Assembly: GCA_973895155.1 (NCBI GenBank)
Contig: OZ316891.1
Span: forward strand, 32,375,208-32,439,207
DNA length: 64,000 nucleotides
From: Marsupella aquatica
Lineage: Eukaryota > Plantae > Marchantiophyta
Reading direction: 5' to 3'
In this document: one piece after another, positions 13,029 to 64,000 of the stretch
Position numbering within the stretch: the stretch's first letter is position 1
Layout of the letters: every line of letters starts with the position of its first letter
Made by a program: the position numbers and the translations under genes
Notes under the pieces: generated by a model
Told to the model about the DNA's origin: nothing
Seen by the model: the letters and a program-made list of their open reading frames with translations, nothing else
Databases searched by the model: none

Positions 13029-13093
13029 ACAACCCATGGCACAGTCAACTCTAAAGCTAAAGGCCCTGTTGTCCTCTACAACAATGTGGAGCT

Positions 13094-24110: not shown

Positions 24111-24225
24111 TGTGATGCCTAGACAGGAATCACTCGACCGGTTAAGTGGGTAAAGCAGGAAGGCACCCTAGGAACACCTTAGTATAGGGACAAAACCAGG
24201 AAAATATAAACAATTAGGGGCAACC

Positions 24226-27849: not shown

Positions 27850-28092
27850 CGGTGCAAGGGCGCCGTTCCTTTTAGGGAGTGGCTGAGGCCGAAGCCGTGG
27901 GTATTGCCGAGGCCGGTGTCGAGGCTGAAGCCGAAGGTGGACCCAGTCAGGCCGATGGAGAGTTGACTCGGTCAAGGGCAGGTAATCTGTCAGTAGGCGG
28001 GCCAACGGCAGTGGCTGATGAGGAAGTGTTGGGGGCGTCCATTGAGGATCCACCACCGGTGTCGTGACGGTGCAAGGGCGCCGTTCCTTTTA
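27657..28092 (+). repeat. 218-bp tandem duplication within the LTR (also at 37473-37908)
   Basis: 27657-27874 is repeated at 27875-28092 with GGGAG at the junctions; absent from solo LTR 13094-17741. Confidence 0.9.
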
Positions 28093-36900: not shown

Positions 36901-38804
36901 AAGATGAACCAGATGGAGTCTGTCATCATTGCAGAGCTCGACAAGGAGCTAAGAGCAACCCAGGAGGAGAGGGCTACCTTGAAGAAGGAATTGGAGGAAG
37001 CCCACAGGGAGCAGGAGGAGGCCAAAAATGAGCTGGAGGGGGCACGTAAGGACCTGGATGAAACCCAAGAGGAGTTGGAGGAAATCACGAGGAAGATGGA
37101 GAACCTACAGCGGTGGGCCGACAACCAAACAGAGCGGCTGAAGAAACAAGCCGCAGTATTTAAATGCTTAGCTGCAGCAGGTCCATCTCCCGTTGGGACA
37201 AACCAGTTACCAGGGGTGGTAATTGCCGAAGGACAAGCCGCGTCAACTGCACCAGTGCCGGAAGTAAGTGGGAAGGGGAAGGGACCAGCTGCCGAGCCAC
37301 CAACGAAGAAGAAGCGGAAACCTTCAGGGTCAAGGAGTAATACGACTTCACAGGCCGTGGTGATCAAGGAGGTAGACCCAGCACCGACCCCAGACAGGGT
37401 CACGGCTAAGGATCCAACTACCCTAGGGGAAGGGGAGGCCGAAGCCGAGGGAGTGGCTGAAGCCGAAGCCGTGGGAGTGGCTGAGGCCGAAGCCGTGGGT
37501 ATTGCCGAGGCCGGTGTCGAGGCTGAAGCCGAAGGTGGACCCAGTCAGGCCGATGGAGAGTTGACTCGGTCAAGGGCAGGTAATCTGTCAATAGGCGGGC
37601 CAACGGCAGTGGCTGAGGAGGAAGTGTTGGGGGCGTCCATTGAGGATCCACCACCGGTGTCGTGACGGTGCAAGGGCGCCGTTCCTTTTAGGGAGTGGCT
37701 GAGGCCAAAGCCGTGGGTATTGCCGAGGCCGGTGTCGAGGCTGAAGCCGAAGGTGGACCCAGTCAGGCCGATGGAGAGTTGACTCGGTCAAGGGCAGGTA
37801 ATCTGTCAGTAGGCGGGCCAACGGCAGTGGCTGATGAGGAAGTGTTGGGGGCGTCCATTGAGGATCCACCACCGGTGTCGTGACGGTGCAAGGGCGCCGT
37901 TCCTTTTAGGGAGGGCGGACGTGGAGGGAGGAGGCGTGAGTGGGCAGGGCGGGCGCGGATCTCCACGTTTAGGATTAGGATCAGAACCAGGAGCGGCCCT
38001 GACACTTAGCTTAGTGGGATTGCGGTTCCACTGGTAGGAGCAACACTTGTGCTCCTGCCTTGCTGTACATAGGTAGATTCGGGCAAGTAGATTACTGTCA
38101 GGTAGATTAGGCTTACGATGCAAAGAATGGCGGATCCACTACCAGGATAAGTACCTGGGCAGCGGGGAGCTCAGGGCCTCTTCTTTAGCAAGTTTTTAGT
38201 TTGCACCAGCCGGGCTGGGATCAAGTAGTACGAGAAGCTCTCGGTTAGTCATACAGTGACCCTTGTGTATATTCATGTTTCCTCATGCCTAAGAGCTGAA
38301 TAGAGTTGGCCTCACGGCTTAGTTCGCAGAACTTGTGTATGAGATGTACTGTTTGTATGGCAAGTGCATGGTATGACTCAGTCAGAATGAGTCATTTTGC
38401 TATTTGTGTGTCGCATTAACTTGTGTGAAGAGTGCCCACATCAACAGAAGGAAGGAAAGTAAGCAGGGGAGTGATAGTTGGATGTGTCGAGCTGAGAGAG
38501 GTCTTAGCGGCTTAACCAAGCCTATTGGGGATCATTCCGGCGGCGGAATCCAAACATACCTAACAAGACGGAGGGGAAGATAGGGGAAGACAAGGGAAGG
38601 CCTATATTAGGCCGGCTACGTATCTCATGACCCGATGAAGGATCTGTCCAGTATATGTGTGTAAAATGTTAATAGTAGTAGTAGAAGGTTAGCAGCGTCC
38701 CATGCCGCTAAGCCGCGGAAATGGCCTCGCCAAGCACGAAACCTGCGGGAATCGGCTTGAGCTGGGGGGTTTCTTGGGTTTAGGGAGCCATGGGACGCAC
38801 CACA
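33927..38804 (+). repeat. 3' LTR (4878 bp)
   Basis: Direct repeat of the 5' LTR, with roughly 20-25 substitutions by eye. Confidence 0.95.
34042..37665 (+). pseudogene. LTR-encoded protein, 3' LTR copy with two nonsense mutations
   Basis: CGA>TGA at 34402 and CAG>TAG at 34438 relative to the 5' LTR copy. Confidence 0.9.
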
Positions 38805-43600: not shown

Positions 43601-44995
43601 CCTGCCCCAGACCGAGTCCACCTTTGGATTTGGCCTCAGCATCGGTCACGGCCTTCAATACGGCTTTGGCCCCCCCGTCATGTTCTAGTGGAGGATCCGG
43701 TACCTCGGCTTCATCGATAGCTGTCCCGGCCTTGGCCTTGCCATCCCCACCTTCTTCAACAGGTGGATCTATTGCCGTGACCATGCCGGAGGTTGGTGCC
43801 GGGTTGACCTCCTGGGTCACAACGGCTTGGTAAGCCGTATAACTCCCAGACCCATAAGGTTTTTGCTTCTTCTTCTTCCCTGTTTTGGTAGCTGGCCCCT
43901 TCCTCTTGCTACCTACCTCCGGCACCAGGGCGTGTGTCTCGGCTTGTCCTTCGGCCAGTACCCCTCTTGGTAACAGAGTTCCCACAATTGGAGTTGGACC
44001 AGATGAAGCTAAGCATTTAAATACTACGGCCTGTTTCTTTAGTCGCTCCATTTGGTTGTCGGCCCACCGCTGTAAGTTCTCCATTTTCCTGGTGGTTTCC
44101 TCCAACTCCTCCTGGGCTTCCTCTAGGTCCTTCTGTCCCTCCTGCAACTCCTTTCTGGCTTTCTCCAATTCCAATTTTAAGGTAGCCCTCTCCTCCTAGG
44201 TTGCTCTTAGCTCCTTGTCAAGCTCCGCTACAACCTCAGACTCCATCTTATTCATCTTGGCATAAGTCTGGTCGAGCTGGTTGTCCTTCTCATGCAAGTC
44301 GGCCTTGAAGCTGGCCGTCAGGGACGCAAGCTCCTGCTGCAGCGCAATAATCCCTTGATAGGATTTTCCTAACTCGGCCTCCTTCTGCTCAAGGGCTCCG
44401 CGGATATCCTTGAGCTCTCCTTTCAACGCCCTCTCCTTTCTCTGAGTCTCCGCCATGGCCCGGTTGTTGGCGGTTATGTGGGCCTCCTCTACGTCCCTCA
44501 GCTCCTGCTTCCACTTTTCTATGTCCTTGACCGCGCCGACCAACTCTCCTTGGGTCCGAGTCAGTTTATCTTTGATAATCTGATTGCCACACTGATCGGC
44601 ATCCAATTGTCCTTGCATGATGTTTAGCTCATGTCGCTTAATCCACAGCTCATCTTGGGCTTTCTTGGCTGCTTGCAAGTCTTCCACTTTGGCTTCCATC
44701 TCCCTAAGCCGCCGGATGACCTCGTCCTTCTTGCTTCTCTCCAAAGCCATCGCTTCTTCTAATCAGTGCTTCTCCAACATCTCCCTCTGGAAAAAAGGTC
44801 CCTGCTCCAACTCCTCCCCAAAGATGCTGAGCGCCAGGTCCCCACACATCTCCCCATACTCCATGGCTCTATCTTTAGCATAGGTGGAGTAAGTAGAAGT
44901 CATCGGCATCAACCACCTCGGCCTCTATTCCCAAGCCACCTTGCGGATTTCTTCTACGGTGGCAAGAGGGTTGCTTCTTTTTTTGGCAAGCCGCC
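40641..44995 (-). mobile_element. Truncated, diverged family A element (part of the 5' LTR 42615-44995, PBS 42593-42610, gag fragment)
   Basis: Reverse complement of ~26345-31040; gag ORFs 41385-42578 and 40813-41418; LTR-ORF fragments 44196-44750 and 43491-44174. Confidence 0.9.
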
Positions 44996-46137
44996 TGTGA
45001 TGCCTAGCCAGGAATCACTAGGCTAGTTAAGTGGGGAAACAGAGGTGTACCCTATAAACACATTAGTATAGTAACAAAAACAAGGAAAATATAAACAATT
45101 AAGGGTGACTATGGAACCCGGGCCGTGGCCGGAGGTAAGGACGCCGGGGGAGAGAACACGATTAGGGTTAGGGCGCGCTAAGCATCGGCGGCTAGGGGTA
45201 ACCAATGGGAGGAAAGACCAGAGGAGGAGAGGGGTAAGGACTGCTCGCGAGGAATGGTGGCTCATTGGCAAGCACAAACTGGGCAGACGACTACGGAAGG
45301 CCAACTACTTTCAGTTGCTTAGGCAAGCACTCGGTGTGGGAGCAGATACCAACGATTGAGTCAAGGAGGGTATGAGCAACGTCAATCAAGCGGCACATTT
45401 TTGGGGATGCCTGTTCAAACGGGCAACTGAGTACATTAAGACTTACGAGGACGAAGAATCGGAGAGAGCAGCTCAAGAACAGCAGGAGCTCGCTCGATTG
45501 TGGGAGCTACAAAAGTCTGCCTTCTTAGGAGGAGAACTCATCAAGACCAAGTTCTTGTGGACTCCTACTGCCAATCAGCTTGATGACCTTCTATTTTGCA
45601 AAGACAAAATCGTTGGCATTCGGGAAGCCATCAACCGCTGCAATGACGCGCACTAGGAGTTGAAGGGTAGCACAGAGGGGTGGACAAAGGCAACTGTGCT
45701 AGGAGAAACATCCACGATAGCCAAGATGAAGAGGAAAGGAAACAACAACGAAGAGACCACCCCGGCAAAAAGAACAAGGTCGGCAGCACCAAGGAAGCCA
45801 GCAGAGCAGCAGAACAAGATGCAAGGAGAAGCCGAAGAGGAGGAGGCCGATCCTATCAATGCCATTCCAACAAAGGATGACACCTGGAAAGGCTGGGCGG
45901 CAACCCTACCAGAGGAAGTGCAATTACATTTTGCACGGGAGGAGGATGCATGGTTTACGGCCATGCATCCCAAGAAGTACTAGGGCTTCATGGCTGGATC
46001 CGGCTTGGAAACCTTTGTAAGATTACCATGGCTGAAGCCGAAGGTGCTGGACTCAGACTTATTAGAATTTGTGGGATCATGGGAACCCAAGACCAATTCC
46101 ACAAGGGTGTATGGGAAGGATTTCTATCTCACTCCCC
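44996..46137 (+). mobile_element. Family A LTR 5' fragment (first ~1.1 kb), diverged
   Basis: Starts exactly at TGTGATGCCTAG; ORF pieces 45105-46130 match the N-terminus of the 1207-aa protein, with stops. Confidence 0.88.
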
Positions 46138-47998
46138 GGTGTTGTCGGGAAAAATGTTTGACAATTGAAGTGGAGTGTGCTAGATCTAGTCGACTTGCTT
46201 TTGTCCGGCTCGGAATGATTTAGTTCTCTGTTTGTGAAAGAAAGAAACAAAGAGGAATGTGGCGGCCTGGGGAGTATTTGAATTCATAAGGACATGTTGG
46301 AGATGGCAGTTGGAGGCGCGGAGGGCGTTAGAGGGATTCTTGGGAAAGAGTTGAGAGGAATGAGGAAACGAGAAGAGGAAGGCGAAGGGCAAAATGGAGG
46401 CAGTTGAAAAGTGATCAAGTAAAGAGGGGATAAGGAGGACGGGAGGAATAGGGCGAAAAGCTTTCAAAGGATGATCTATGCGCTCAGAAGTTTAGAGGAA
46501 AAAGGGGGAGATTCAGCTGAAAGGAAATGTTGTTGTAGTGTGGAGGTCTTGAGATTATTTTATTTTATTTTTTTGAGTGGCGGAGGCATCAGTGGTCGTT
46601 ACTCATTTGGTCGTGACTGCTATGGAAGTAACAGAGGTGATTGTTATAGTGGAGGGAGTGGGTGATGAGGTTCGACGATGGAATAGAGGGAAAGAGAGGA
46701 AATTGTTGAACAAAAAGGGCAGTATGTGCTTGCGCAAAGGAAGGGAGAAAAATGAAATGAACTGAAAGAGGTCGAGAGAATGCGAACTGTGAAAGCAGGT
46801 GGTGGTGGTGAATGTGGATAAGATAGGAGGGATGCGTGCCTGACCAGACTTTGGACCCGGATTACTGCTGCTATTGTCGTGGTTGTGGATTGAACTGTTG
46901 TCACCCAGAGGCCTTCAATTCAGTTCAATTTTGCTGATGTCCTGCAAAGAGCAGAAATTGCCAAAGAATTTGTTGTTGGCCTTGGCTGAGGAGAGGAACT
47001 GTGCGACTTGTAGGGGGGTATTTACAAAAGACAGGAACCAGGAAACAGTAATAGGAAATAGTAATAGGAAACAGTTACTGTTACCAGGAGAATTGGAGGT
47101 AAAAACCAAAAAAATCAGACCAAAAAAAGGATTCCAAACAATCAAAATTAAAGCCCATTTGAGTCATTTTCATTAAAACAGTCTCATTCCGGACGAAATA
47201 TCCCGTTGGGTAGTCCGACCCAAATTTGCGATGATTACCAGCGCCTAGCGCTGGTATCAATGAAGCGAATGGAAAGCTAGTAGGGTTTCATAGAAGAAGG
47301 AAAAATTCAACAAAAATCTACGTAACCTCAATCGAGAAGACAATGAGCGGCTGAAAACGAGGCAATTCAAATCAAAAGAGGCAGGGTCATACAACAACAA
47401 AATCCGAATCTCATTGCTAGTTTAAACCATACATTGGAGATTGAAAACCATACATTGGAGGAATGTATGGTTTTCCTCTCGATGGCTCAATCTCCAATGT
47501 ACGAAAACCATACATTGGAGATTGAGCCAATCACAAATTCATTTACTTCAAAAATGGTTGAAAAAATATCACCGAGATTACATGGGCGACGGAAAGCAAT
47601 GAGTATAAGTAGCGCCCAACACTAGCTTAAAACTACAAATCCCGCCCTTCCATGTGTAACGCCATGGAGAGGAAAATGGGTCGATCCAAAAAGCATTTCC
47701 TATAAAAATGAGCAAAAACATATTACCCAGATTACCAAATCCTAACAAAACATTAAGTACTGAAAAACGGATATAGAAAGCATCCAGCTTTAGCAGCGCT
47801 TGGCGCTAGCTTAAATATAGCTACCTAGGAACCTAATCGCTGTAGGGTTGAACTCCAAAATAACCTAAGCGACTGCAATTGGAACACCTTTAGCTCTGTG
47901 ATTGACAGTCATCATCGACTCCCGCCCTCGCCCGCTTGTAGTTTTTCTTGAATCCTAAACCCCTGAGCCGAATATAATTGGAAGAGGGAACTCAATGC

Positions 47999-48340
47999 TC
48001 ACCATGAGCTTGGCCAGGGCCCCGCAAAATTTGCATCAAGGAAGTCGACGCGCCCCAATTGCTCTTGCACACGACGTTCAATGGGCTGCTGACCATCAGC
48101 AGGAACGACTTGATGAAATGAGAACCGATCGTCAAATTTGCGTGGAGTCTGTCGGTCACCAGTCCACGGAATATTTCTCTCCCCAAGACTAATCGCCTCA
48201 TCGTAAGGAAGAGAATTACGGTTCTGAAAAGTTGATGTCTCGGTCTCAATGTCGACACAAACTGATTCGAAGGAGCTAAAGTGGCTCTCCACCGGTCGAA
48301 CTCGGGAAGCACTGAAGAAGGCAAGCATCTCGTCCAACAA
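47999..48340 (-). pseudogene. Conserved unknown cargo ORF, copy 1
   Basis: SRVRPVESHFSSFES...LPYDEAISLGERNIPW...RRVQEQLGRVDF matches ORF 53872-54312. Confidence 0.55.
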
Positions 48341-48985
48341 CATTGGTTCCCTCCTCTCCATGTGGTCGCACCTAGCTTGACAATGTCCACACGCAGGTCG
48401 ACAACATCTGCACCTTAACGTCCGCACCCAGCTCGACAACGTTCGCACCTTGCCCTAAAGTCTGCAACCAGATTGACAATGTCTGCACATTTATCGACAA
48501 TGTCCGCACCTTTCTCGACCGTCTCCAAAAGGTTGACATAGTGACTACCAAAGGACGGTCATCGGTGGACACCCGTAACATGCGAACTTCAACGGGCAGA
48601 GGACCGTTGAGTAAACAATCAAATTGCGACACGATTATTTTGAAACAGACCCAACTTAATTAGGTAACGACAATATACGGATGGCAACAGGATGGCGACA
48701 GAACGCATGAACAATATTATGATGTAAAGGTTCGTGGAAAACTGTGCACATTTGGGGAGCACCCGACGCTACTAAACGAAGAGACCAATTTAAAACCTTT
48801 TATATAAGAAATACATGTACCTCGATAATAGCGCCCGGTGCTACTAAAGACAACAAGTGGTTTTTAGATTTTTATTATGAGCATATGAAATGAAATACAT
48901 GTCTTTTCATAACAGCACCCGGCGCTAGTAAAATCTGGAAAAGAAAAATACATCAATTATCAGTTTCAGATTCTGATCCAGAGCT

Positions 48986-51520
48986 CTATGATCTGTCGGG
49001 AGGGACTGCTTCGTCATCGACATACTTGCTCTTAGAAAAGTCATCTATATACGGGTTTCTAACAAACTTTCTGTCAACTCCTCTTCGAAGGCGGAGACCT
49101 TTGTTTTCCCAGCACAGAGTCCTTTGACTATCCTCCTTCCTCGCAGCGTTCTCAGCGTAAGACAAATGGTTTCTTCGATGTATCCATTTCAAAACGTGAA
49201 ACTTTTCTTCTGAGTTGGAAGCGCTTTCTGGTATTTCATTCGGACCTGGGTAGATAACCAAGTAAGACAACCAATTGAAAGATACAATGAATAGTAAAAA
49301 ATGCATGAAGGAGCTGGAAAAGAGAAAGAAGCTTACGAGTTTCAGAACATTACTTGGAAGAGTCATCGCTATCACTCTCGCCAGCAGATTGCTCCTTACC
49401 CCCCCTGAGTTGTCTCCCCGTCCACTTCATCTGCTGTCCCCCCACTTGACTCATCATCGGAGTCAAAATTAAGTACAGACCGGAGCTTGTCCCTCTTTTT
49501 CTTTTCCGGTGGTTGAATTGGGGGAGGCAAGGTTTCTTCTTCCTTAGAAGAGAGTAGATTTAAGAACACCTTGGAACCAGTTTCAAGGAAATCCTTCTGA
49601 TTCTCCAGTCCAATTACAAACCTCCCAAAATAGTCTCCGGCTACAAAAGAGCTACCCGAACCAACTGTCCAATCTATGAAAATGTCCCGAGGACGAGTGA
49701 TGAGCTCTATCACAGACTGCATGAATCCAACCGACAAACGGGCATTCCCTACGAATTCCATCTCAGGTGTTGGATCTATATTGAGAGTGGGAAACCCAAT
49801 TAAATTAGTGATGGAGGGATCTTCTATAACAGACAGAGGTCTAAACCTCAAGTCCTTGGGTACTTTCCCTTTATGAGATACTCGGCAAAAGACGTCTAGC
49901 CTAAGCATGAATATCTGCGAGATAAACCAAGAATGATATGTCATTCCATGCATTCATACACATTCTTGAGTGTTAAAAACAGAGATCATGACTTGGAATT
50001 TACCTGTCGGTCAGTCTTTGGAGCATACATAGGAACTGAAATAACAACATTGTGTGTTGAGATGCAATGAAACTTCTTTGATTCTTGACATGCGGATATA
50101 ACCTGAGACATAGGATCGTACTCCCCATTATGCAAAACTGCTAGCATTCCGTCATCTGATAAAAATGGGTCCATTCCATGAAAGAACGATGTTGCCAGTG
50201 TGTGGTCGGGGGTATTCCATTTCGAGACTTTTCTATCTAGCAGCAATGGTTTCAGACCAGTAGGAAGGTAAATGAATCCTGCGTGTACTCCAAATGATCT
50301 TTCCTTCCCCCCATTGACAATTCCCTTGTCTCGATATCCCGACTTCATGAGGTCCTTTGCCCATTTCTCTACACCATTTACCCAGTCAGGCTTCTCCTCT
50401 TTGTTGAACGTTGTGTCATAGAATTCAGAGATGCTAGACTCAACCATGCAATGCCTTGAAAGAGTGTTTTTGACCAACTTCTCGTTGAACACCTGTTGCA
50501 GCCGCACTTTCCCGAGCGGAGGATGATCCACCTTCAATTGCCCTTTTTCGCTTCTTTCTAGTACTAATCGCATCTACTGGAGCAATTGACTTCCCTTTCT
50601 CGACGGGTGTAAGTGGGTCAGATGGAGGCCCTGTATTGGCTTCAGATGCCTCTGGGGTGGCATCTATCTTTGTATCGCCGCTGCCTATGGCGTTTGACTT
50701 TCTCCCTGCTCAAATGGAAGGCGATGTTAGAATTTGAGCGGATGGAAAATGCAAAGTATACTAACGCCCGGCGCTGGCCAAATTTCTTGAAGAGATGGAA
50801 GCAAATATAATATATATATATATATATATTCATGGAACAAATGAGACAAATGAAATCTAACATATATTGAATGGCATAGCAGCACCAGGCGCTAACCAAA
50901 GAACTACAAATTATACTTACATTTTTTCCCGAACCTTGTTGATTCACTTGGGACAGCAGTATCAGCTTTCCCTTTTGCGCGAGGCTTTTGGCTTCGGTCA
51001 ACGTGAACAACTGTGGTCTCACAATTCATTTGCAATTCTGTTGTGGACTTATCTACATCATCTGCTAGTCCCTGCTTCATGTCAGAAACAATATTGACTG
51101 GTATCTGGGACTTAGAGAGCTTGTGGAAAGCATCCTTTTCTCGGTGATCAAAGGGCGAGTCCCATCTGTCTGTATCTAGGTACCATGGACAGTGGGTTCT
51201 CTCCCATTCACTTAAAGGTTTCGCTGGGAAAATTCCCTCCGCGGGGTACATAGAGTACAAATCAGATAAATTGTCGCCTTCTGATATTACTGTCCACTTC
51301 TGAAAGGTGGCAGGATATGCCCAGAAGTAATCAGGTCTAGTTACTTCCATGTGGATGTAAAATCAGTAGAGATACCTTTTTGCTCGCTTCTGGTTCTTGA
51401 AAGTCCTCTTTGTCCGGATACTTTGAGGGCCACATTGTATTAAAAAACTTACTCTTCACCGAGTCTCCGTATCTCTTGAAATCATTCGTAACTATATCAA
51501 TGAGAGCTTTGAAAGATTCA
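48986..51520 (-). pseudogene. 3' half of the ParB-MTase-like gene, copy 1
   Basis: ORF pieces 51337-51537, 50904-51350, 49986-50573, 49396-49953 and 48986-49375 are homologous to 55133-57600; motif IFIDWTVGSGSSFVAGDYFGRFVIGLE; several frameshifts. Confidence 0.75.
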
Positions 51521-51690
51521 TGTGACGCCAATGACATGGTTCTTATTTTGTAATCTGATTAAGTAGGTTGCTGTATGCAAGGAGTAGCTATTGATATTGC
51601 TTAACAATTAGCAAGATGGCAAGAATGAGGGCAATCATGACGTTAAGAGTAGGGAAATAAAAGCTATGTCGCGGGTGATTGATGATCACA
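51521..51690 (+). repeat. Fragment homologous to 20240-20375 and 20698-20737 (CACTA-associated region)
   Basis: TGTGACGC..ATGACATGGT.CTTATT...GATTAAGTAGG...GCTATGTCGCGGGTG is shared. Confidence 0.8.
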
Positions 51691-51907
51691 TCTCTTTCAA
51701 TATGTCACCAAATCCGGATCTGTAAAGAGCATTGGAAAGATCTGGTCAAGGCGAGTAAAATTGATATAAAACATTCGAGAAACGGAGGTGTATTAAGAAA
51801 GATACGGCCTGATTAGTGTGACGGGTTAACTTGTGGCCGGAATTAGCGGATTCGGCTTCAGTTTCGGGTTAACCCAAGCTCGACCACGGCTTAGCTTATG
51901 TGAGCAT

Positions 51908-52074
51908 GGCTTCAGCTTAGCTCAGGTCAGCACGGCTTTAGCTTAGCTCAAGTAAGCACGGCTTCAGCTTAGCTCAAGTCAGCACAGCTTCAGCTTAGCT
52001 CAGGTCAGCACGGCTTTAGCTTAGCTCAGGTCAGCGCGGCTTCAGCTTAGCTCAGGTAAGCACGGCTTCAGCTT
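51908..52074. repeat. 26-bp minisatellite, 6 copies plus a partial
   Basis: Unit GGCTTCAGCTTAGCTCAGGTCAGCAC, flanked by degenerate GGGTTAG-rich sequence (51820-52320). Confidence 0.9.
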
Positions 52075-53871
52075 AGGCTTAACCCGGGTTCGGACTAGAT
52101 TGATCCCGGGTTAGACTTAACGCGGGTTAGCCTAAACTCGGGCTCAGGTTAGCATAGGTAAGCTTGGGTTCAGGCTCAGCTTAGGCTAGGTTAGCGGATA
52201 GCGGATAGCGGGTAGCGGGTAGCGGCCTAACCCGACACCACGGGTTAGCTCTACTCGGGTTAGATAGGATAGCTAGGTTAGCCAAACTCGGGCTAGCTAT
52301 GTAACTCGGGTTAGTGCAGGAGTGAGTACCCCCTCTCGGTTGCGGGGGCATAACTCTCTGTGTATTTGACCAAATCGGCTATAATTAACCTCGTTGGAAA
52401 GAGGAGCTCAAGCCACTTCCAACGCTGCTATCCACGCAGCAAATGGTTGAATAGAGAAATCAGGAGAGGAGGTGCAAGCTCGCAAAAACCATGGAGGAGG
52501 GCCAAATCCAAAGTACATAGCCAATTTGAGATAGAAATAAAGCTGCGAGTTAGGGTTCAGTAGTTAGAGATAGTGGCGGCTCTGTTAGGGCTGGGATGGG
52601 GCTCCAGCAGCGTAGCATCCACCCATTTGGGCTCAAGGAGAGAGTATATAGAGCAGCCCCCCGGTAGAGGCAGGGGGGACTTCAGTTGTGTGATCTCACT
52701 TAGACTGAGCAGCAGGGAGGAGCTCTGTGCAAGCAAGGCTGGACTTGGACGCTGCGTGTTGGGGAGAGCTTGGTGGTGCTATTACTCAGGGAGTAATCAG
52801 CCAAGCTTCACAGCAACGGGTTGCTAGGTTTGCGAGCTGGATTGTGGCTCTTTCTAGTGGGCAGCACAACTGGGTTCTTTTCCCCCGATACAGAGCCTTG
52901 GTGATAGGTGATGTATTGGTGATTGTAAACTGTGGGGAGGATGTCGATTTGATTTGTGGTGAGTACATTAGGGAGGAGGAGACATTGATTGAGGGGCAGC
53001 AGGAGGAGCATTTACAGTTCAGTCTGGCAAGGCTACGTGATCCATGGGGAGTCCTGGCCTTTGTCTGGTGGAGAGCACTAAGGGATCTATGGCCAGAGCG
53101 GAGCTTGCAGGGCAAGCGTGAGGCCGGGCCTCATTGCAATCTGGGGTAGACCGCCGTTAGGGGGGAATTTACAAACGACAGCAAACAGATAACAGTAATA
53201 GGAAATAGCAACTGGTACCAGTTAAAAGGAAACAATTACCAGTGAACAGTGTTTGGATGGTCGTGAACAGTGATCTTAAAAAAAGGTCTCAAAATCTCCA
53301 TTTGAAAGTACAAGAATAGAAAACAAAACCACCAAACCCTCGTGATAAATAAAAGAACAACACGGAAACAATTTTTTGAAACATAAAAGACGGCTGCCAA
53401 TTGAGATACACAAAATCCAAGACAAATACAAGTAGAAAAGAAAGGCCGGAATAAACATTCGCATATATTATCGCAAAATAGAAAACGCGCTCGGCTTAAG
53501 TGATACAAAATGCAGTTATCAACATCAACAATCTGGCCTAAAAATCCCATCCATGAAGTCACAGTCGACACTGTTGGAGGTTTTCGACTAATACATGAAC
53601 AGCGCTCGGCGCTAGCCAAAAACTAACTAGAAAACTAGTCGTTTCTTGGAGACAAGATGCGTCCAAACCTAGACAACATAGTCAAGATCCATTCCCTCCC
53701 ACAAAATCCGTTGTCGTTTCAATAGCGCCCGGCGCTAGCCAAAACCTAAATAGTAGACAACCGGGAAAACTCTAACGCCAGAGCTGAGGTCGACTTCAAT
53801 GCCACAAAATCCGGAAAACTTTAGCAGCGCCCGGCGCTAGCTTAAAGCGATCAGCAAAACGAAATTTCCAT

Positions 53872-54312
53872 CTAGCTTTCCGAGTTGCAATCATCATCCA
53901 CTCCTGCTGCTTCTCTCCGCCGATCTTTCTTGAAGCCGAGACCACGCAAATGAACGTATCCCTCTAAAGGTCCTCGATGAACAGCCCTCGTAAAATGTTC
54001 AATAGGAATATTACTGTCCTTAAAATCAACTCGCCCGAACATTTCTTGTACTCTTCGATCGATTGGGAGTACCCCATCAACAAGAACTCCCGGGTGAGAC
54101 GAAAACCGACTAGAGAACGGAGGCACAGGGGAATCGACAATCCAAGGGATGTTCTTCTCTCCAGGACTAATAGCCTCATCATACGGGAGAGCATGACGGT
54201 TCCAAAAAGTGGAAGTTTCAGTTTCTTTAGTCTCCATCCGTGATTCAAAAGAGCTAAAATGGCTCTCTTCCGGACGCACACGAGAAGGACAAAAAGCTGC
54301 CTCCCAATCCAT
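53872..54312 (-). CDS. Conserved unknown cargo ORF, copy 2
   Basis: 146-aa frame conserved at the protein level with 47999-48340; the start or exon boundary is uncertain. Confidence 0.55.
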   Translation of the reverse strand: MDWEAAFCPSRVRPEESHFSSFESRMETKETETSTFWNRHALPYDEAISPGEKNIPWIVDSPVPPFSSRFSSHPGVLVDGVLPIDRRVQEMFGRVDFKDSNIPIEHFTRAVHRGPLEGYVHLRGLGFKKDRRREAAGVDDDCNSES

Positions 54313-54479
54313 TGGCTCATACTAACTCGCCATGTTTCAAAGATCCTGATCTAATATGTAACCTCTCCTCCCGTAAGAACGTCGTCCGCGAGTGCTATAG
54401 CCGACAAAGGTCAAAGAAAGGTCCGCAAAGACTAAGACACCAGATAAAGGTCCGCGTACACTACCGTTCCAAAACGACC

Positions 54480-54780
54480 ATCAAACTATCATCGTCCCAT
54501 TCTATTGCCTCCCAAAACTATCTTCGCCTTGGTAACAGGTATCGTCCCGTTCTATCGCCCTGCTCTAACGTCTCGTTCTATCATCTTCCCCGAAACAAAG
54601 TCTTCCCAAACAAACTATCGTCCCGTTCTATCGTCACGTTCTATCGTCCTCCCAAAACAAAGTCTCCCCTCCCGTTCTATCATCCCGTTCTATTGTCCCG
54701 TTCTATCGTCCCATTCTATCGTCCTCCCGAAACTATCGTTGTCCTCAACTATCAACGTCCCCAACTCTCGTCGTCCCGAA
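54480..54780. repeat. Degenerate 14-bp repeat array
   Basis: Unit TATCGTCCCGTTC(T), more than 10 imperfect copies. Confidence 0.8.
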
Positions 54781-55132
54781 TAAACCTAAACTGAAACTAT
54801 AGTCGTCCCTTCCGCCCGGTCCCTAAACTATGGAATCATCATCCCGAAACTATGGTCCCCAACGGCTTTCCGACGACTGACTAAAGAACACAATCCAAAT
54901 GGCAGTTGGTATCCAATGACGATGACCGTTGACAGGAAACGACAAAGACTAAACGGCCATTTAGAGATTCCATTTGGCGAGTGCCAGGCGCTTGTAAAGA
55001 ACAGAAGTCAAAAGTAATCAACAAGTAGAGAGAAATCAACAATTTAAAAGGACCCTCAGCAGAGGGAAATAATACAGATGTTACAAGCATCGGGCGCTGC
55101 TAAAAGATTTAGCCTCAACTACCCACTACTTC

Positions 55133-55440
55133 TCACGGTTCCAAAGATTCTGAGTCGGAACCAGAATCTGTACTCTGGGATCTGTCCGTGGACACAACCT
55201 CATCATCTACGTATTGGCTGCGGGAGAAGTCATCAACATAAGGATGTTTAATGAACTTTCGGTCAACACCCCTTCGTAACCAAAGACCTTTGTTTTCCCA
55301 ACAAAGTGTCCTTGCACTTTCTGCTTTCCTTGCGGCTTTCTTTGCATAGGAGGGAAGAACAAACAGTTTTTCCGGTGTTTCTACGTTGTGTCTCGCGATC
55401 TTCCTCCGCAGTTTGAATCGTCTCCTTGCATTCCACTCTG
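55133..55440 (-). CDS. Probable terminal exon of the ParB-MTase gene (unknown domain)
   Basis: RTLCWENKGL.LRRGVDRKF...PY.DDFS conserved with 48986-49250. Confidence 0.5.
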
Positions 55441-55546
55441 ACCTGATATAACAAAGTCCATTTTGTAAGGCGCCTTTCCCCAAAACAACAAAAGAAATGT
55501 TATGAATTGACGGGAATGGAGAAAGAAGCTTACGAGTTTATGAACA

Positions 55547-58500
55547 TTACTCGGAAGAGTCATCACTATCGGTTTCATCTGCAGCTGCACGACGCTCTCC
55601 CTTTTCCTCCTCGGAGTTTCTTGTACCTTGTTCCTCTCCACCTTCACTCGATTCATCATCAGAATCAAAATTGAGAACCGACCGAAGCTTATCTCTCTTT
55701 TTTCTGTCGGCAGTAGGAACAGGTGGAGGTAACACTGCAATCTCTTTGGGAGACAACAAATCCATGAAAACCTTTGAAGCGGTTTCAATAAATTCTTTCC
55801 GGTGTTCTATCCCGAGTACAAATCGTCCAGAGAAGTCGCCAGCAATGTAAGAGCTTCCAGCCCCAGCAGTCCAATCCATAAAAATATCACGAGGTCGTGT
55901 GACAAGCTCTATAACAGATTGCATAAAACCCACAGACAGACGAGCATTTCCAGCAAACTCCATTTGCGGGAATGGATCTGATTTGAGCGAAGAGAGTCCG
56001 ATCAAATTGGTAACCAAAGGGTCCTCACTGATGGACAGCGGCCAAAATTTGGGGTCTTTGGGAATTTTACATTTCCCATTAATTCGGCCAAATATGTCGA
56101 GCCTGAGGGTAAACATCTCTTGGTCTGTCTTTGCCGCATACATCGGGTCAGACATCACAACATTATGCGAGCATATACACTGAAATTTCCTTGACTCCTG
56201 ACAGGCAGCAATGACTTGCGACATGGGATCGTACTCCCCATTGTGTAGAATTACAAGGAACCCATCATTTGAAAAAAATGGATCCATGGATTTGAAAAAA
56301 GATCTAGCCATTGAGTGATCTGGAATGTTCCATTTAGGAACCTTCTTATCAATGATAGATGGTTTGAACCCGATCGGTAGGTAAATGAAGCCGGCATCCA
56401 CTCCAAACGATCTTACTTTTCCCCCCCGAACAACTCCCTTCTCTTTAAATCCCAACTTAACGAGGTCTTTTCCCCATTTCTCCACATCACTAACCCACTC
56501 GGGCTTCTCCTCCTTGTTGAAGGTCGAGTCAAAAAATTCAGAAAGGCTTGTCTCAACCATGCAATGGCGAGACACAGTTGTTTTGAAGTTTCCAACTTCA
56601 CGTTGGAAACCAGAAGCTATAACACTCTCCCTTAAAGATTGTCCACCTTTGACAGCTCTCTTTCGTTTCTTCCTGGTACTCGTGGCGTCGATAGAAACTA
56701 TAACCTTCGCTTTGTCGACTGGAGTAATGGGGTCCGATCGAGCTCCCATGTTTGCCTCGGAAACTTCAGGTGTAGCATCCTTTTTCGTATCTCCCGTTTC
56801 CACCGTATTAGACTTCCTCCCTCCTAAAATATAACCAGGTTGTAGTTAGAATAAGTACTTTTAAAGTATTGAAAGAAGCTAGCGCCTGACGCTAACCAAA
56901 TGCAATTCACTTAAGTCGCAACCGAAGCCTAATAACCAAGAAAGAGAACAACCCTCAACAAAATATTTTTTGCCAGCGCCTGGCGCTGGCAAAATCATGG
57001 ATAGCAATACTTACTCTTCTTTCCAGATTTAGTAGACTTGCTCGGTGCTGCTAGCTCCGCTTTGGCTTTCGCGTGAGGTTTGCGACTCCGGTCCACATGC
57101 ACAACAGTTGTTTCACAGATAGTTTGCAAGTTTGTGGCAGACTTGTCTACATCGTCAAGTAGACCCTGCTTCATGTCGGACACAAGTTTTGTTGGCATCT
57201 GAGACTTTGAAAGCTTATGGAAGGCATCTTTTTCCCTTTGATCAAAAGGAGAATCCCATCTATCTGTATCTAGATACCAGGGGCAGTGAGTTCTCTCCCA
57301 TTCTGTCATTGGTCTCGGAGGAAATATGCCCTCCGTGGGGTACATAGAGTACAAATCAGCCAAGGCATCATCTTCACTTATTGAAATCCACTTCATAAAA
57401 GCTGCAGGATATGCCCAGAAGTAATCAGGTTTGGTTACCTCCATGTGCATGTAGAACCTATACACAAACCTCTTCGCTTGCTTCTGGTTTCTCTGGGTGT
57501 AATCTTCTTTGTCAGGGTACTTTGAAGGCCACATAGTGTGAAAGAACTTATTCTTCACGGAATCACCAAATCTCTTGAATTCATTTGTAACAAACTGAAC
57601 TAGATCATCAAACGAACTACAATTCCACTCTTCCAATCTATTCGCGGGCATGGTTTGCTCAACTTCACGTAGACATGAATGTAACATGCCAGCAACAATT
57701 CCCTCCACACTATTCCAAGTGATCCAAGTGTGGCACCACTGTTTGACTGGATCATCGTTAACACTTGCTGGGTGAAAAAACTGTCTCCGCAGCTCAGGAT
57801 TGCAATGTGCCACAAGTAAAGTGCTTCGTAACTTTGGGTCTAGAGCAGAAACAGCGGTGAACAATCGTGCACGGTCCATCGTACATACAACGGTGTCAGG
57901 CTTCTTCTCTCTCTTGTTTCTCTATGTGACAACATACATTTCTGCACATGTACTGAGGAAATCTTCAAATTCAGGACTTAATAAGGGCGTAATTTTTGAA
58001 GACTTCACTGCCCAATCTTTGGTTGCGTCTTTCATCATGGCCGCATGCCGTTTTGAAATCTCGTCCGCCAACCATGGACTCCCTTGAGCCTCCGCTGCCT
58101 CCATGTCGAGTTTGAATTGATGCGAGTACGACTTTATCTTATTCTCACAAAGAATGTAAACAAGTGCTTCTTGTGGCATCTTCTTCGTATACCATGACCC
58201 CTTCCGAGTTTTCAGCCGAATGCTTTCAAACTTCTTGAAATTACCCGGGTCAATCAGTTTACTGTAATACTCAAGGTCATGCGCCAGAATTCGTTTGATT
58301 CTGTTCGCATCCAGGATCCAGGAAGGCTCTACAACTGCTTGGCCAAGCCTACACAAACAAACGTTGAGAGTAAGAGTCAATGAAAAACAATTCATGTATA
58401 AGCAACGCCGAGCGCTAGTAAATACAGCACTCGCAAGATTTAAGGAAAGAACTGGAAATCATGAGAACTTACTGATTCACGGTGTGCATAGCTGCCTCAA

Positions 58501-59038
58501 TTTCAATGAGAGATCCCTTGTCTCCTTTAAATATTGTACAGAGCACACGAGGATGATATTTTGGATTGTCCGGGTTCTCCTCTGTTACAAGCGTCCAGGA
58601 GTACAGCCTGTGATTTCCATCGAATACAGAGAACATCTTATCCTTCAAGACGAGAAAATCTGGGTCAGCCTCGCATTCAGCCTCAAACTTCTCGTTCTCC
58701 AATTGCCATATTGGATCCCATGAATCACGAATGTCCTGGGTACAGGTCAGAACAATTCCGTTCTCATCCGTTGGCTGCACATAGAAACGCATCCCTATCG
58801 AAGAGTTGTAACCCATACTACGAAAAGAGTCTTTCAGCTTCTCGATGGAAGAGCTGTCTTTCTGCAGAGTATGAACCACCTCCATGTGAACCAATCGACA
58901 CAGAGGGATTCAAGGCGGCTCCTTGTCAAATCCATGAGAATCCTTTCCAAAAGACATGACATGTTTTGAAATGAGATCAATCTCAGCAAGCACGCAATCC
59001 GCAACATCCTGGATCGCCAGTGTGTCTACGTTGTCCAT
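55547..59038 (-). pseudogene. Spliced ParB/Srx-like plus helical region plus beta-class N4C/N6A DNA methyltransferase-like fusion gene (two in-frame stops)
   Basis: Exons ~59038-58473 (IEKLKDSF...GY...VFDGNHRL), 58348-57015 and 56823-55547 join in frame over GT-AG introns. The last exon has VIELVTRPRDIFMDWTAGAGSS..A....GRFVLGIE (motif X-I-II pattern). Stops at 58910-58912 and 57922-57924. Confidence 0.72.
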
Positions 59039-59483
59039 CTTTCTTCACAAAGGATTTGGACCCAAAACACCGCTGACAGAAGTGAGCGGCAACAACTTTG
59101 AGGAACGAGTTACACGACGTGTATAGACTGAACCAGTAAACGAAGACTGCGAAGATTCAGAATAAGCTCGCTCCTGGTCATGAACCACACTATACCCTCT
59201 GGAAGAAGAGGGGAATACCTCCATCGTCCTTCTAGAAGCGTACAAACTATCGTACAATGAAATTATGGAACTATAATCATCTCTGAACGTGTAATATATT
59301 CTAGCGGGAGGATGACATAACCTAGAGGAAATCCATTAGCTCTGGTGTTTGGCGGTTTCCAACGTCTGTATACGGAAGGTTTAATTACCAAAATCAAATG
59401 GTAGAAGATGCGTAACACACACGGAAGTCATAAGTTACCGTTGAATGTTACCGTTAAAGACATTTCCTAACATCATATCAATA

Positions 59484-59910
59484 CTAGCGTCGGGCGCTAG
59501 CATTAATGATGACCATCAAGGTGAACAATTTAGAGTATGCTTATAATAGCGCCCGACGCTAGTATAAACTGGAAGAAATTTAGAGGTCTTTTTGGAAGGA
59601 GCTATAACATAAATTTTGGCCTTTCCACCCCCATATTTTATTAAAGTATCCTTCAGTACATCGTTTACGGAGAAATATTTCTCAAATGTAATACTAGCGC
59701 CCGGCGCTAGTATAAATGTTCATTTATCATCCATAATCCATCAAAACCATCCTTTGAAGGCACCATTTATTCCCAATTACCACCTGGTATGTGGTCATAA
59801 TGTTCATTTTCAGGGAATTTATTCTATACTAGCGCCGGGCGCTAGTTTGGAATGTCGAGATTTCAGACACATTTTTAGTGGCGTATTTTAGTTAGCGCCA
59901 GGCGCTACTA
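59484..59910. promoter_or_regulatory. Cluster of five AGCGCC-N-GGCGCT palindromes in the divergent intergenic region
   Basis: Copies at ~59484, 59546, 59694 (ATACTAGCGCCCGGCGCTAGTAT), 59828 and 59893. Confidence 0.65.
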
Positions 59911-60185
59911 AAATTTGACAATACCTTGTCATATCTTATGGTCTGTTTAAGTAAGGTTGGTGATCTTTTTAGCAATATGTTCGTGTCTGACATCCGGACT
60001 TCTCGGGGAAAAAATGACAAAAATCATTTATGGTGCCAACGGATCCTCCATTGTCAATGTTTTATGTCGTATACAAACGGATCGGTTAACGTCAAATTCC
60101 CAGGTTCGACAGATATAAGCTGAACAATACCATGAACTTTTCTTCTTTCAAACGCTATAGCCCTCGGTTTTTGTTTTTGTTCACC

Positions 60186-63100
60186 ATGTCTCGGTCTATC
60201 GTTCTTTCTCGATTCAGTTCTGAAGATATTGTGACTATCCCCGTCCCCATGGAAGATACGTACAAGCAGGTCCGGGAGAGGTATCTCTGCGGGAGATTTG
60301 ATTTGAAGATGAATGACATTGAGGCCATTGTTCAAGAGCTCAAATCCATTGATGATATCGAGGATGCTGCAACGTTCAATGTCGATGACGATGAACGGTT
60401 TTGGCATCTCTACGCAGGGATCTCGTACTCGGTTCATTTAAGATAGCATGCAGGACTGTCCAGTTTCCCGCCGGTTCCATGTGATGTGGTTGAGATTTCT
60501 TCAAGTGAGGATGGAGATCGTACTCTAAGTCCACCGTCGAAGAAGAAAAGCCCGCTCCCCGCTGTCGTGAAAGCTGAGACTCCGGGAAGCTCTAAGCAGT
60601 TGGAGTTCGTGTACCGGCGCAGTGCGATGGATACGTTACTCAAATCAACTGGTCATAGTGAGTTGGCACGGTTCATATCAGCGGGTGATTTCAGGCATGA
60701 ACAAGTGTCCTGTCTGCCAACTAAGTACAATGGTAACGTCGTGTTTGAGTTGTCGCCCATTGATAAGATGCTCTCTAAAGGCTCTAGGCTTAGGGACATG
60801 GATCGTGCCAAAGATTGTTACATTTGGACACGCATATTTCCAACAACTGCAACTATTCATCCTAAAAACCTTTGGCAGTTTGGGAAGGTTACCTGTACGG
60901 GATTCATTGAATGCAGGAACAAGTCCTGCGACTATTTCCAAAGGAAGAAGAAGGCAAATGCTAAGGCATGGCAGGGTACTCCAAAGCTCAGTGGTCAGTA
61001 TGCTGTGGGATCTTTCATCGAAGAGGGAGGTGTTGTTTGTCATTACTGCGAACAGATTCCTTTTTGTGTGAAGTACTGCCCTGCCCGTTTGTTTTACATG
61101 TACCCCCAAGTATTACTTGATGCGGAAACATGTAGTCATATGTCCCGCCTGGCAATTCATATAGGTGAGCACAACCATCCAGGTAGAAAAACCTTCTGTA
61201 GGAGTGCGGAGAAGATAGCTGAGGATCTAATTAAAAAAAACATGAAGCCAATCCTCTATCAAAACCGGCAGGGATCTTGAATTCTGCTACAGGGTCCTTA
61301 GTGAAATCTCTCTGCGAACATGTTGACGACATGGTCGATATCGAAGAAACTGAAATGTGGAAGTCTTTGATGGTCCTTTCCACTCCGCAGAAGTTTGCAT
61401 CTCTTTGTCGGAGCGTTAGATAGACCAAAAAGGTCGGGGTGAATTAGATTTTCCCTCGCAAATGCAGAGGAAAATTCATGTGTCGTTTCTCCAGAGGTAT
61501 TTGCTTCCAGGTCAGGGATGTCAGAACGATAGGCCTCACATCTTTAAAATGACTGTGAAAGGTCACGGTTCCGGTGTGGATCTTTTGAGGCAGATGCAAT
61601 CGGGTGGAAGACTCAAAGGAGCCTGGGTAAGTTTCGATGTGATGCAGCATGTCACCACGGATTGGTTTACTTTCAGCGCACACGTCTACGACCACAATTT
61701 CCGTGCACTGTGTACAATTTTCACATGCGAGTTGAAAGGTGAAGACACTGAGTCTTTTGAAAAGGCATGGAGAGTGATGATTGAGGTTTGCAAAGAAAAT
61801 GAACTTCAGGAGGTTGTCATCCAAGGATTTATGGCCGACAATGCACAAGTTGGATGGAATGCAGTGCGAAATGTTTTTTTTGTGGACACCCGGACCCGGA
61901 GAGGGAGCGCTCTGATGCATTTCACTTTTATCAATCTTTTCATTGTCATTCCAAGGAAGGAGTACTGGAAGAATGTCAATCGGAGCATCGGAGACTTTGG
62001 GAGAAACTGAGAAATGCTCCATCATTTGTGGCAGCATACCGGGTGTCCCGAGAGATTGTTGTGTGGTGGCAATCAGGAAACTGTGTCCCCGGAAAGCTGA
62101 AGATGCTGCAAAGCTGGATATCTTGGTGGGTTGTTTGCTGGCGCCAGTGGGGCAATTTTATTCAAGTGGTAAGGCATCCATCTATCTAGACTGTAATGTT
62201 CATCAACTTCATATTAGCGCCAGGCGCTGGTTATTTTCTCCATACACGTCAAAACAAGTAGTACAAGAAATTGAAGCCAATATGTAGTTAGAATTCAGTA
62301 TTAAACATTGAAATTGTATTTCAGGCCTGTTCTACATATTTATGTTGCCAGCGCCGGGCGCTGGTAATAGAATACTACTTACGGTTGACATTTTTGTATG
62401 GCAGAGCAAAAGCGCTGAGGAAGGTGCCTTGATCCCCAACTGTACAGGGTCAGAATCAAGGCATGCGTCCATGAAAGCCTCGGCTACAAAGAAAAAGGTC
62501 GGTCTTTATGAAGCTTGCGAAGTTGACCAAAACCATGCTCTGTCTCAAGTTGCCGGATACAGTGCATACCGTAAAGGCTTGAACCGGGGGAAGGGGCCAA
62601 CTATATGGGAATTGGCGTTCCATTCCGCCGATCAAGCAGGTTCGCCAAGATTGTTTGAAGAAGCGACTAATATGCTTCTATCTAACGCAGCAGAATTCGA
62701 TTTGGAAAGAAGTACTCCCCTGAATGGAGATATAATGACGAAGTCAATGAAGAGGAAGGGACATGCAACTGGGACTGTCTCTCCACAAGATTCCCATCGG
62801 CATGACACCGTTCTAATAACCACACCAAATACTCGTGGTTTGAAAAGGAAGAACCTGAACAGATCTGACTTTTCTTCTATTCCCTCAAGTTCTGATCATC
62901 CTGTCACAAAGGCGGTGAATCTCTCAGGTATGGTCACATCAGAGAGTGATACTGATTCACTGGACTATACTCCTCAAACAACCCAAACAACAAGATCCTC
63001 AAAACCTCCGCTCAGTGCCCCAGCAGCACTTCAGAATCAACTTCCACGCACGATTGTGCTAGAGAAGGATGTCCCTCCGGGGCAGTGGCAGTTGCAATGG

Positions 63101-63934
63101 ACATCGAAGTATGGAGCAGGTCTGCAATGCAATGGTACACTGAATGGGAGTTTGGATCGCGATGAGTGTCGAAATCGTATCAAGAAGGTTGGCTTCCATT
63201 CGTCTGAAGGTGTTGTCGGAATTGTCGTGAAGGGCCATCGTCTCTTCAGGGGCGAACCCGTCTCCGAAATGATTTGGTTTTGCCCAAACCAAGCGTGTTA
63301 CAAGAGTCATCCGCGTCGTGGTGTTCAGAAGCTTCCTCCTTTTCCTGACATTTTGCCTGTTCTGAAGGGTACGAGCCTGTCTCCTTCTGAAATTACATTC
63401 TTGGAAGAGCAAGGACTTGTCTTAGCACGAACAACAAGATTGAGTCGATCTGCGCCATCTGCTTTTGACCTCAGGATAAATGTTAACGTGTTCCCAGAAA
63501 CAATAAGGTTTTTGGAGCCAAATCTCCGACTTGGTAGTCGGAATGGGAGGAACTCAAGGCCTCGGTCTAATCTCACTGTGGGTCACACAAAGCGAATGGA
63601 GTCTGCACGACAAGAAGTGATGAGTTTGGATGGGGAATGGAATGTTCAGACCGGAAATGCTTTTGGAAAGCAATTTCGAATTCGAACCCATGAGAACCAT
63701 CGATCACCAAGCACATACTTTGTCCAAATCTGTATCTTCCCCGCTTGCTCTTGTGAAGACTTCTTCCTCCGACATTCGCGTGGCAAGTCGTACATGCCTT
63801 GCAAACATCTATACTGGGTGTACATAAATGTTTTCAAACTTGAGATTGAGGAGTCGACTCTTTGTAGCCAACCTATTTTGACTTTAGGCGAAGTCAGGCT
63901 TGTGCTGGAGAGGCAGAACTTGAATGGCTTATGA
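60186..63934 (+). pseudogene. MULE-type transposase: GCM/WRKY-like Zn domain, DDE core, C-terminal SWIM finger
   Basis: CTGFIEC.NKSC...CHYC...CPAR...HIGEHNHP; VSFDV, GFMADNA, AFHFYQS and GSESRHASMK (D, D, xxH, E); CSCEDF...PCKHL SWIM. Intron 62169-62404; stops at 60444 and 61421; frameshifts in the A-run ~61235 and T-run ~61878. Confidence 0.8.
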
Positions 63935-64000
63935 GAGAGATCGAAACTGCCCAACAGGTCGTCGTTCAATATAACGGTTATTCCCTATTTTGTCTTTTTC

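Follow-up and report, generated by a model that had tools for sequence, protein, structure and literature searches.

Dispersed palindromic sites in the non-coding DNA of a Mutator-like transposon from Marsupella aquatica, with a ParB-like/methyltransferase-fold protein as their possible reader

The DNA analyzed here (the window) is a 64,000-nucleotide stretch of Marsupella aquatica (GenBank assembly GCA_973895155.1, contig OZ316891.1, positions 32,375,208 to 32,439,207), which holds two diverged copies of a Mutator-like transposon encoding a transposase and an accessory protein with a ParB-like N-terminus and a beta-class DNA methyltransferase (MTase) fold. All 23 copies of a palindrome present in the window lie inside these transposon copies (8 in copy 1 and 15 in copy 2), and the palindromes are a real, conserved non-coding cis-element of the transposon family. 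Their symmetry and placement suggest that they are most likely read by a dimer that the element itself encodes. Our preferred reading, to which we give somewhat less than even weight, is that a dimer of the ParB-like/pseudo-MTase accessory protein would bind the sites in the manner of the Arabidopsis VANC proteins, without catalysis, for self-protection or self-activation. The original prediction of a cognate protein-plus-site system is therefore borne out for the site, which is conserved, symmetric, non-coding and the family's own, but its reader and function are parts that we infer.

Distribution and conservation of the sites

In full, the site spans about 27 bp and reads approximately TTWWRCYAGCGCC-N-GGCGCTRGYWWAA, with the half-site reaching outward to about TTWWRCYAGCGCC. 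Its core, AGCGCC-N-GGCGCT, ranks first among palindromes in an unbiased scan of the entire window. Scanning 64 kb for YAGCGCCNGGCGCTR with at most two mismatches gives 19 matches, the first at 47239 and the last at 62363, compared with a mean of 0.36 and a maximum of 3 in 100 shuffles of the window, and with two or fewer matches in each of 46,412 composition-matched simulations of the element's non-coding DNA. The 22 copies originally listed, which were said to be perfect or to have one or two mismatches, all exist to within 1-2 bp; 19 of them fit that description and the other three (48757, 54979 and 55085) have three mismatches, as does an additional site at 47610 that had been missed. Perfect copies account for 8/23 sites. 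A half-site weight matrix, derived from the same 23 sites that it scores, recovers exactly these sites in the window, every one with a 1-bp spacer, and finds no half-site pair with a spacer of 0, 2 or 3 anywhere in it. Three-mismatch matches at 54553 and at three positions in the left 47 kb do not pass the weight matrix and are not counted as sites.

As had been claimed, the sites are confined to non-coding parts of both copies (23/23) and are absent from the left 47 kb of the window, which is mainly long terminal repeat (LTR) retroelement and other repeat DNA and yields zero sites by weight matrix and zero matches to YAGCGCCNGGCGCTR with two or fewer mismatches. Non-coding DNA makes up only 35% of the two element copies, yet it holds every site, even though the core can be translated as Ala-Pro-Gly-Ala, so that coding sequence is not barred from carrying it. 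The predicted sites in the transposase intron, the spacers and the divergent promoter were all located there (Table 1), and the divergent promoter alone carries 5/15 of the copy-2 sites. Sites had also been reported from both introns of the copy-2 accessory gene, which is correct for introns 1 and 2; the gene also contains a third intron, however, which is 108 bp long and lacks sites in both copies. Spacing between sites ranges from 62 to 2720 bp, and no array found in a tandem-repeat scan overlaps any of them. Sites in copy 2 are internal: the first lies 440 bp inside the left end and the last more than 1.6 kb short of the presumed right end, and there is none in the terminal repeats or near that right end.

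Divergence between the two element copies is 51-63% at third codon positions and 12-24% at the first and second, and introns and spacers hardly align between them. For six of the eight copy-1 sites, copy 2 nevertheless has a site at the equivalent place within diverged flanks; core bases of the paired sites are identical at 66/84 positions and ungapped flanks at 71/240, a comparison biased in the motif's favor because the pairs were chosen by the motif. Independently of this pairing, intron 2 of both copies holds two sites. These signs of site conservation suggest that the sites are under selection between diverged copies. In public sequencing runs from three organisms (1,261, 2,877, 2,230 and 266 family contigs per run), the transposon family appears as many contigs of graded identity, and at 56889, 58405 and 59490, where the window departs from the consensus, the majority of contigs carry the consensus base. 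In addition, the end of a diverged intron-1 contig from run X1 enters a half-site after unrelated sequence.

The arms of the palindrome vary independently of one another. Arm-to-arm matches at the outer positions number 77/161, compared with 73.5 +/- 5.7 for shuffled pairs, and the arms agree at the Y/R position in 12/23 sites where 10.2 are expected from shuffles, which argues for a DNA site read by half-site rather than a hairpin. Taken together with the absence of any Rfam match for the sites, these data led us to reject a hairpin or RNA reading. Moreover, flanking sequence differs from site to site, so that the sites share no common miniature inverted-repeat transposable element (MITE) body, and the motif is unlikely to be the end of an unrelated MITE, a concern raised alongside the original prediction.

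Searches for further carriers identified one transposase relative among metagenome contigs (L001, a 2,078-bp contig) and none in viral and prokaryotic contigs. The L001 transposase is 49-62% identical over its main segments and has the same intron, within which lie three sites of the TATTGCTAGCGCC-GGCGCTAGCAATA type. These retain the 13-bp half-site (3/3 score 31-35 bits) with a spacer of 0 bp in 3/3, compared with 1 bp in 23/23 sites of the window, and this difference at a single locus supports the view that the site varies between subfamilies, as would be expected for the site of a dimeric protein. One L001 palindrome (1172-1231) has been lengthened into an inverted repeat of 60 bp, the 29-bp arms of which match perfectly; we read this as local arm copying. 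Exact palindromes in 7 prokaryotic and 5 viral stretches were set aside as chance because none has a second perfect site or a tblastn match to the accessory protein.

Table 1. Coordinates of the element copies, their genes and the palindromic sites in the window
Feature	Position	Strand	Remarks
Left part of element copy 1 (diverged subfamily)	47013..51520		truncated at 51520 by insertion beginning TGTGAC
Element copy 2, about 10.85 kb	53160..64000		left end GGGGGGAATTTACAAA; presumed right end resembling a terminal inverted repeat (TIR) begins at window edge
Accessory gene, 1160 aa	55133..59038	-	exons 59038-58473, 58348-57015, 56823-55551, 55442-55133 (predicted from sequence)
Mutator-type transposase	60186..63934	+	one intron; one stop and three frameshifts in copy 2
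Small open reading frame (ORF) A, 146 aa	53872..54312	-	conserved in copy 1 (about 47999-48358), third-position-biased divergence
Tandem repeats upstream of ORF A	54545..54777		13/16/62-bp units, subfamily-specific; copy 1 has different 21/35-bp units, 48385-48519
Sites 47239, 47610, 47794	47239..47808		copy-1 left spacer
Sites 48757, 48829, 48913	48757..48927		3' of copy-1 accessory gene
Sites 50762, 50880	50762..50894		copy-1 intron 50707-50920, counterpart of copy-2 intron 2
Sites 53600, 53723, 53825	53600..53839		copy-2 left spacer
Sites 54979, 55085 (3 mismatches each)	54979..55099		3' of copy-2 accessory gene
Sites 56880, 56974	56880..56988		copy-2 accessory-gene intron 2 (56824-57014)
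One site	58403..58417		copy-2 accessory-gene intron 1 (58349-58472)
Sites 59485, 59547, 59695, 59830, 59893	59485..59907		spacer of divergent accessory/transposase genes
Sites 62215, 62349	62215..62363		transposase intron 62169-62404

Both element copies open with a G-run, at 47013 and 53160, and TIR-like sequence about 40 bp past the transposase stop probably marks the right end of copy 2, the end itself lying beyond the window. The layout is nested, in that the insertion from 51521 cuts copy 1 and copy 2 follows after 1.6 kb, oriented the same way; the insertion between the copies contains a 26-bp tandem array of 7 copies (51889-52076). The accessory gene of copy 2 carries two premature stops. 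Other family copies in the public-run contigs have an inserted base at all three transposase frameshifts and do not have the stop at 58910-58912, which identifies the window copy as a decayed one. ORF A has no family match; the repeats upstream of it recall the fast-changing target repeats of VANC and could be a second class of site. Further to the left, positions 4000-8000 are CpG-depleted (observed/expected ratio 0.21) with long minus-strand ORFs, and are apparently the remnant of another DNA transposon. Near-identical 4-5 kb repeats with a 1220-aa coiled-coil ORF (13085-17741, 24111-28988, 33927-38804 and 42615-46136) flank gag/integrase genes as very long LTR-like units.

The accessory protein as a candidate reader

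The accessory protein consists of a ParB-like N-terminus with a DGNHR motif, an unassigned middle domain, the beta-class MTase fold and a basic C-terminal exon, and its gene is under purifying selection. Named homologues come from Calypogeia fissa and Riccia sorocarpa (11/30 looked up, plus cluster mates; the others are unnamed or hypothetical). The fold of the MTase exon is clear: its model (predicted local distance difference test score, pLDDT, 82) matches M1.HpyAVI and CcrM in Foldseek (E-values of 5e-13 and 3e-12), a profile search matches the same two enzymes with motif IV preceding motif I, and DWTxGxG, which resembles the S-adenosylmethionine-binding motif, is kept. A HMMER scan with this exon gives 84 matches, and a word-index search gives none at near lengths.

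The active-site motif of beta-class amino-MTases is DPPY/SPPY (PMC10406627). Among the 38 aligned sequences that span this motif, the pattern [DNS]PP[YFW] and its closing aromatic residue are both absent (0/38 each), and the Asp is kept in 6/38. With the register set by a Riccia DPPT protein that aligns to the start of PF01555, the catalytic position reads YLPI and YLPT in the window, FLPN, CLPN or CLPS in Calypogeia, and DPPT, DLPS or DMPT in Riccia. Absence of the motif across the family implies that the MTase domain is likely to be a conserved pseudo-enzyme, and makes it improbable that the palindrome is an MTase target site, as had been suggested. Beta-class MTases are described as homodimers (PMC10406627), which suits a two-fold symmetric site, dimerization of the accessory protein being predicted from its class. 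The MTase domain of copy 1 is interrupted by an additional intron of about 89 bp (49917-50004) that is not in copy 2; many homologous fragments start or stop near it, so that copy 2 has probably lost it. Intron 3 is of equal length in both copies and has a conserved start (minus-strand 55518-55550 and 49321-49353) that contains two candidate splice donors: GTAATG, and GTAAGC located 17 bp after it, beyond an in-frame stop. Alternative splicing at this point would gain or lose the basic C-terminal domain.

Support for the ParB-like domain is weak. DGNHR is invariant in 4/4 sequences, and hhalign to 27 bacterial ParB domains places both motifs in register, scoring above 60/60 shuffles but reaching a probability of just 3-4%. 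Atlas comparison relates the ParB-like exon, at 0.93-0.95, to unnamed, DUF3723-tagged and ParB_N-tagged clusters, the ParB_N tag being present on 2/30 matches with the family on 11% of cluster members. Fungal DUF3723 clusters among these neighbors of the exon (58472-58909) represent a conserved Starship cargo family, and we found no literature that contains both DUF3723 and ParB. The domain has no Pfam or PHROG match, and in tblastn searches of phages and plasmids the exon, or a homologue, yields no E-value below 3. Its AlphaFold model is poor (pLDDT 53, four-sequence alignment), so that the failure of Foldseek (PDB and viral sets) and VIA-align to return a match does not count against the fold. 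For the 444-aa middle exon there is no PHROGs match, and its best Atlas score (0.81, last 308 aa) is not convincing. The C-terminal exon has no PDB match; with 21 K/R in 85 residues it is a candidate for DNA contact. In ParB, the helix-turn-helix (HTH), and not the N-terminal domain, is described as reading parS (PMC7333895); family searches of the accessory protein (Pfam, PHROGs) find no HTH, and family scans of the element's ORFs find no ParA-type family. "parS-like", the term first applied to the palindromes, therefore holds for a repeated two-fold symmetric site but is otherwise only an analogy.

In the preferred reading, a dimer of the accessory protein would bind the palindrome with one half-site per subunit, the bound protein would mark the transposon as self, and it would keep the promoters and introns of the element less silenced without methylating them. 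The steps that we infer are thus that a protein binds, that the binder is the accessory protein, that it is dimeric, and that the outcome would be anti-silencing or self-activation in the VANC manner. This outcome is suggested by the internal, promoter-rich placement of the sites, as reported for VANC21 (PMC5735166). With motifs and tandem repeats masked, CpG observed/expected ratios are 0.85 in non-coding DNA, 0.68-0.79 in coding DNA and 0.49-0.71 for codon-boundary CpGs, and this retention in non-coding DNA gives weak backing to anti-silencing.

Several observations weigh against this reading. First, the sites turn over, in that 47239, 48829 and 53723 are unmatched between the copies, and they decay. 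The original claim that they are kept despite C>T decay is correct insofar as they are conserved between copies, but they are not immune: 20/20 departures within the core are C>T or G>A transitions, perhaps reflecting methylation-driven decay in silenced copies. The departures at 58411 and 59556 are also present in majority contigs, and C>T at 59835 is common in runs X3 and X4. Second, CpG retention is flat with distance from the sites (0.75, 1.01, 0.80 and 0.92). Third, run X5 has very deep short contigs over two site bins (window 59480-59538 and 59657-59715; 3,929 and 1,381, where most bins have fewer than 40), which suggests that the motif word also occurs in some abundant repeat of organism C, from which this run derives; a loose contig end from this run shows a second site 13 bases on. 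Deep bins are also seen over coding parts, however, so that a diverged abundant family may account for them. Fourth, the spacer of the motif differs in L001, but this contig carries the transposase and not the accessory gene, and the spacer change is therefore not attributable to the accessory protein. Finally, the ParB assignment is weak, its hhalign score not rising when a 42-column insert is removed, and no DNA-binding domain is recognized in the protein, the middle and C-terminal exons having no Pfam match.

Alternative readers and other explanations

A possible but clearly less favored reader is the transposase, the N-terminal zinc (WRKY-GCM1-type) domain of which might bind the sites as a dimer and activate or repress its own element. 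By inspection, the transposase has a Cys/His zinc domain (GCM-like), a D-E-D-H core and a C-terminal SWIM-like motif (SWIM E=2), a pattern that matches the description of Mutator transposases in PMC1702500, and the Cys/His domain is conserved in P0085. Transposases of Mutator-like elements (MULEs) are described as carrying WRKY-GCM1 DNA-binding domains, with self-regulation through internal sites proposed (PMC1702500), and the AtMu1 transposase alone is reported to hypomethylate and activate its family (bioRxiv 10.64898/2026.08.24.746577). Moreover, the sole relative with DNA, L001, ties the motif to the transposase gene. On the other hand, binding of AtMu1 is reported to peak at TIRs in the same preprint, whereas here the terminal repeats have no site, and the GCM label stands by inspection, since there is no MULE or GCM match in Pfam and no Pfam or PDB match for the zinc domain. 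Sub-cut-off Pfam matches to TRAPP, NRN1 and Anthrax_toxA were rejected as chance.

Still more doubtful, although it keeps the accessory protein as reader, is a eukaryotic parS-ParB clamp, in which a nucleotide-gated dimer would load at the palindromes and slide over the 11-kb element, its dead MTase would shield the DNA from 5-methylcytosine silencing by the host, and spacer length (1 bp or 0 bp) would act as the family key. We regard it as unlikely that the element is switched on through recruitment of a host transcription factor or of the ORF A protein to the sites. Non-coding, promoter-rich placement would suit any dimeric regulator, and ORF A is conserved between the copies; however, ORF A has no recognizable domain, the 47 kb of neighboring repeat DNA contain zero sites, and the clean switch of the spacer from 1 bp (23/23) to 0 (3/3) is easier to envisage if the reader evolves with the element.

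The probability is very low that the accessory protein is an active N4-cytosine/N6-adenine MTase whose active site is unusual and whose substrate is the palindrome: the clear beta-class fold with its retained DWTxGxG, and the MTase activity proposed for an Ectocarpus protein (PMC12477816), would allow this, but the catalytic pattern and closing aromatic residue are missing from all 38 sequences and the Asp from most. Weakest, if only marginally so, is a structural or neutral origin of the palindromes, as hairpins, MITE ends or excision footprints dispersed through non-coding DNA. This idea could draw on the perfect 29-bp arms in L001, site turnover and the deep X5 contigs, but is opposed by the absence of arm co-variation in the window and of Rfam matches, by the dissimilar flanks, and by positional conservation between copies in which more than half of third positions differ.

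Known systems and significance

The idea of self-binding by ParB-like and MTase proteins has already been proposed for algal transposons. Ectocarpus Sola1-1_Ec32 encodes a ParB-like + N4C/N6A-MTase protein of about 1100 aa that is proposed to bind and modify its own transposon (PMC12477816). By its description, this protein resembles the accessory protein in size, in MTase fold and in being encoded on the strand opposite the transposase; it differs in belonging to a brown alga and a Sola transposase, whereas the present element is of Mutator type, resides in a land plant and has lost the catalytic motif. The description of Sola1-1_Ec32 names no binding site, and three motif strings were not found in five supplements of PMC12477816; here the site is defined. 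In Bostrychia Plavaka, a PF01555 gene and a ParB-like gene adjoin tandem inverted repeats, for which self-binding is proposed (bioRxiv 10.1101/2025.02.11.637652). As described there, PAG2/PAG3 share with our element the PF01555 MTase and ParB-like domains as transposon accessories and inverted repeats proposed to be ParB-bound, and the ParB-like gene of this red-algal element lies beside the inverted-repeat arrays, the transposase of that element being unrelated. Unlike the dispersed single sites here, the Plavaka repeats form tandem arrays beside PAG3, and ParB is fused to a 2-oxoglutarate (2OG) oxygenase and the MTase to SET.

VANC binding and demethylation in Arabidopsis VANDAL elements have been shown by experiment (PMC5735166). 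As described, these are also MULEs with accessory ORFs and a short motif, specific to each family, that is restricted to non-coding DNA (introns, intergenic and terminal regions). Confinement to non-coding MULE parts is matched here by 23/23 sites but tandem amplification is not, no array lying over a site; VANC motifs are asymmetric 8-9-mers amplified in tandem, in contrast to the dispersed 26-27-bp palindrome, and the candidate reader, unlike VANC, has a bacterial-type MTase fold. A Pfam scan of the element's ORFs finds no VANC-type family, no direct comparison with VANC having been made. ParB-N6N4-MTase fusions are reported to be common in phages (PMC12704722), and bacterial ParABS and phage ParB-MTases (PMC7333895, PMC12704722) are described with a GxxR-type motif (GNHR here), multiple symmetric sites and the ParB + PF01555 fusion. 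They differ from the present intron-containing eukaryotic gene on a cut-and-paste transposon, for which neither a ParA-like gene nor an HTH was detected and for which we expect no role in segregation. Marchantia DN4MT1 and rotifer N4CMT (bioRxiv 10.1101/2021.02.12.428880, PMC10406627) are likewise eukaryotic proteins with a bacterial-type beta-class amino-MTase fold, but are described as active host enzymes that keep TSPPY/SPPY, whereas the protein here is transposon-borne and has lost the motif. No literature on this element or motif in bryophytes was found, the search not extending to Repbase, to Iyer et al. 2011 or to papers behind subscription, which could include an account of this protein family. 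New here are the land-plant, Mutator-type version, its likely dead enzyme, the defined dispersed site and the spacer variant.

For testing such proposals, the element offers a defined 27-bp site that shows signs of selection, together with a natural spacer variant, in a land-plant host group to which a genetic model belongs. It also points to a cargo enzyme that acts non-catalytically. Were the clamp reading correct, a bacterial segregation mechanism would have been reused for eukaryotic epigenetic defense, with a site-directed anti-silencing tool as a possible application.

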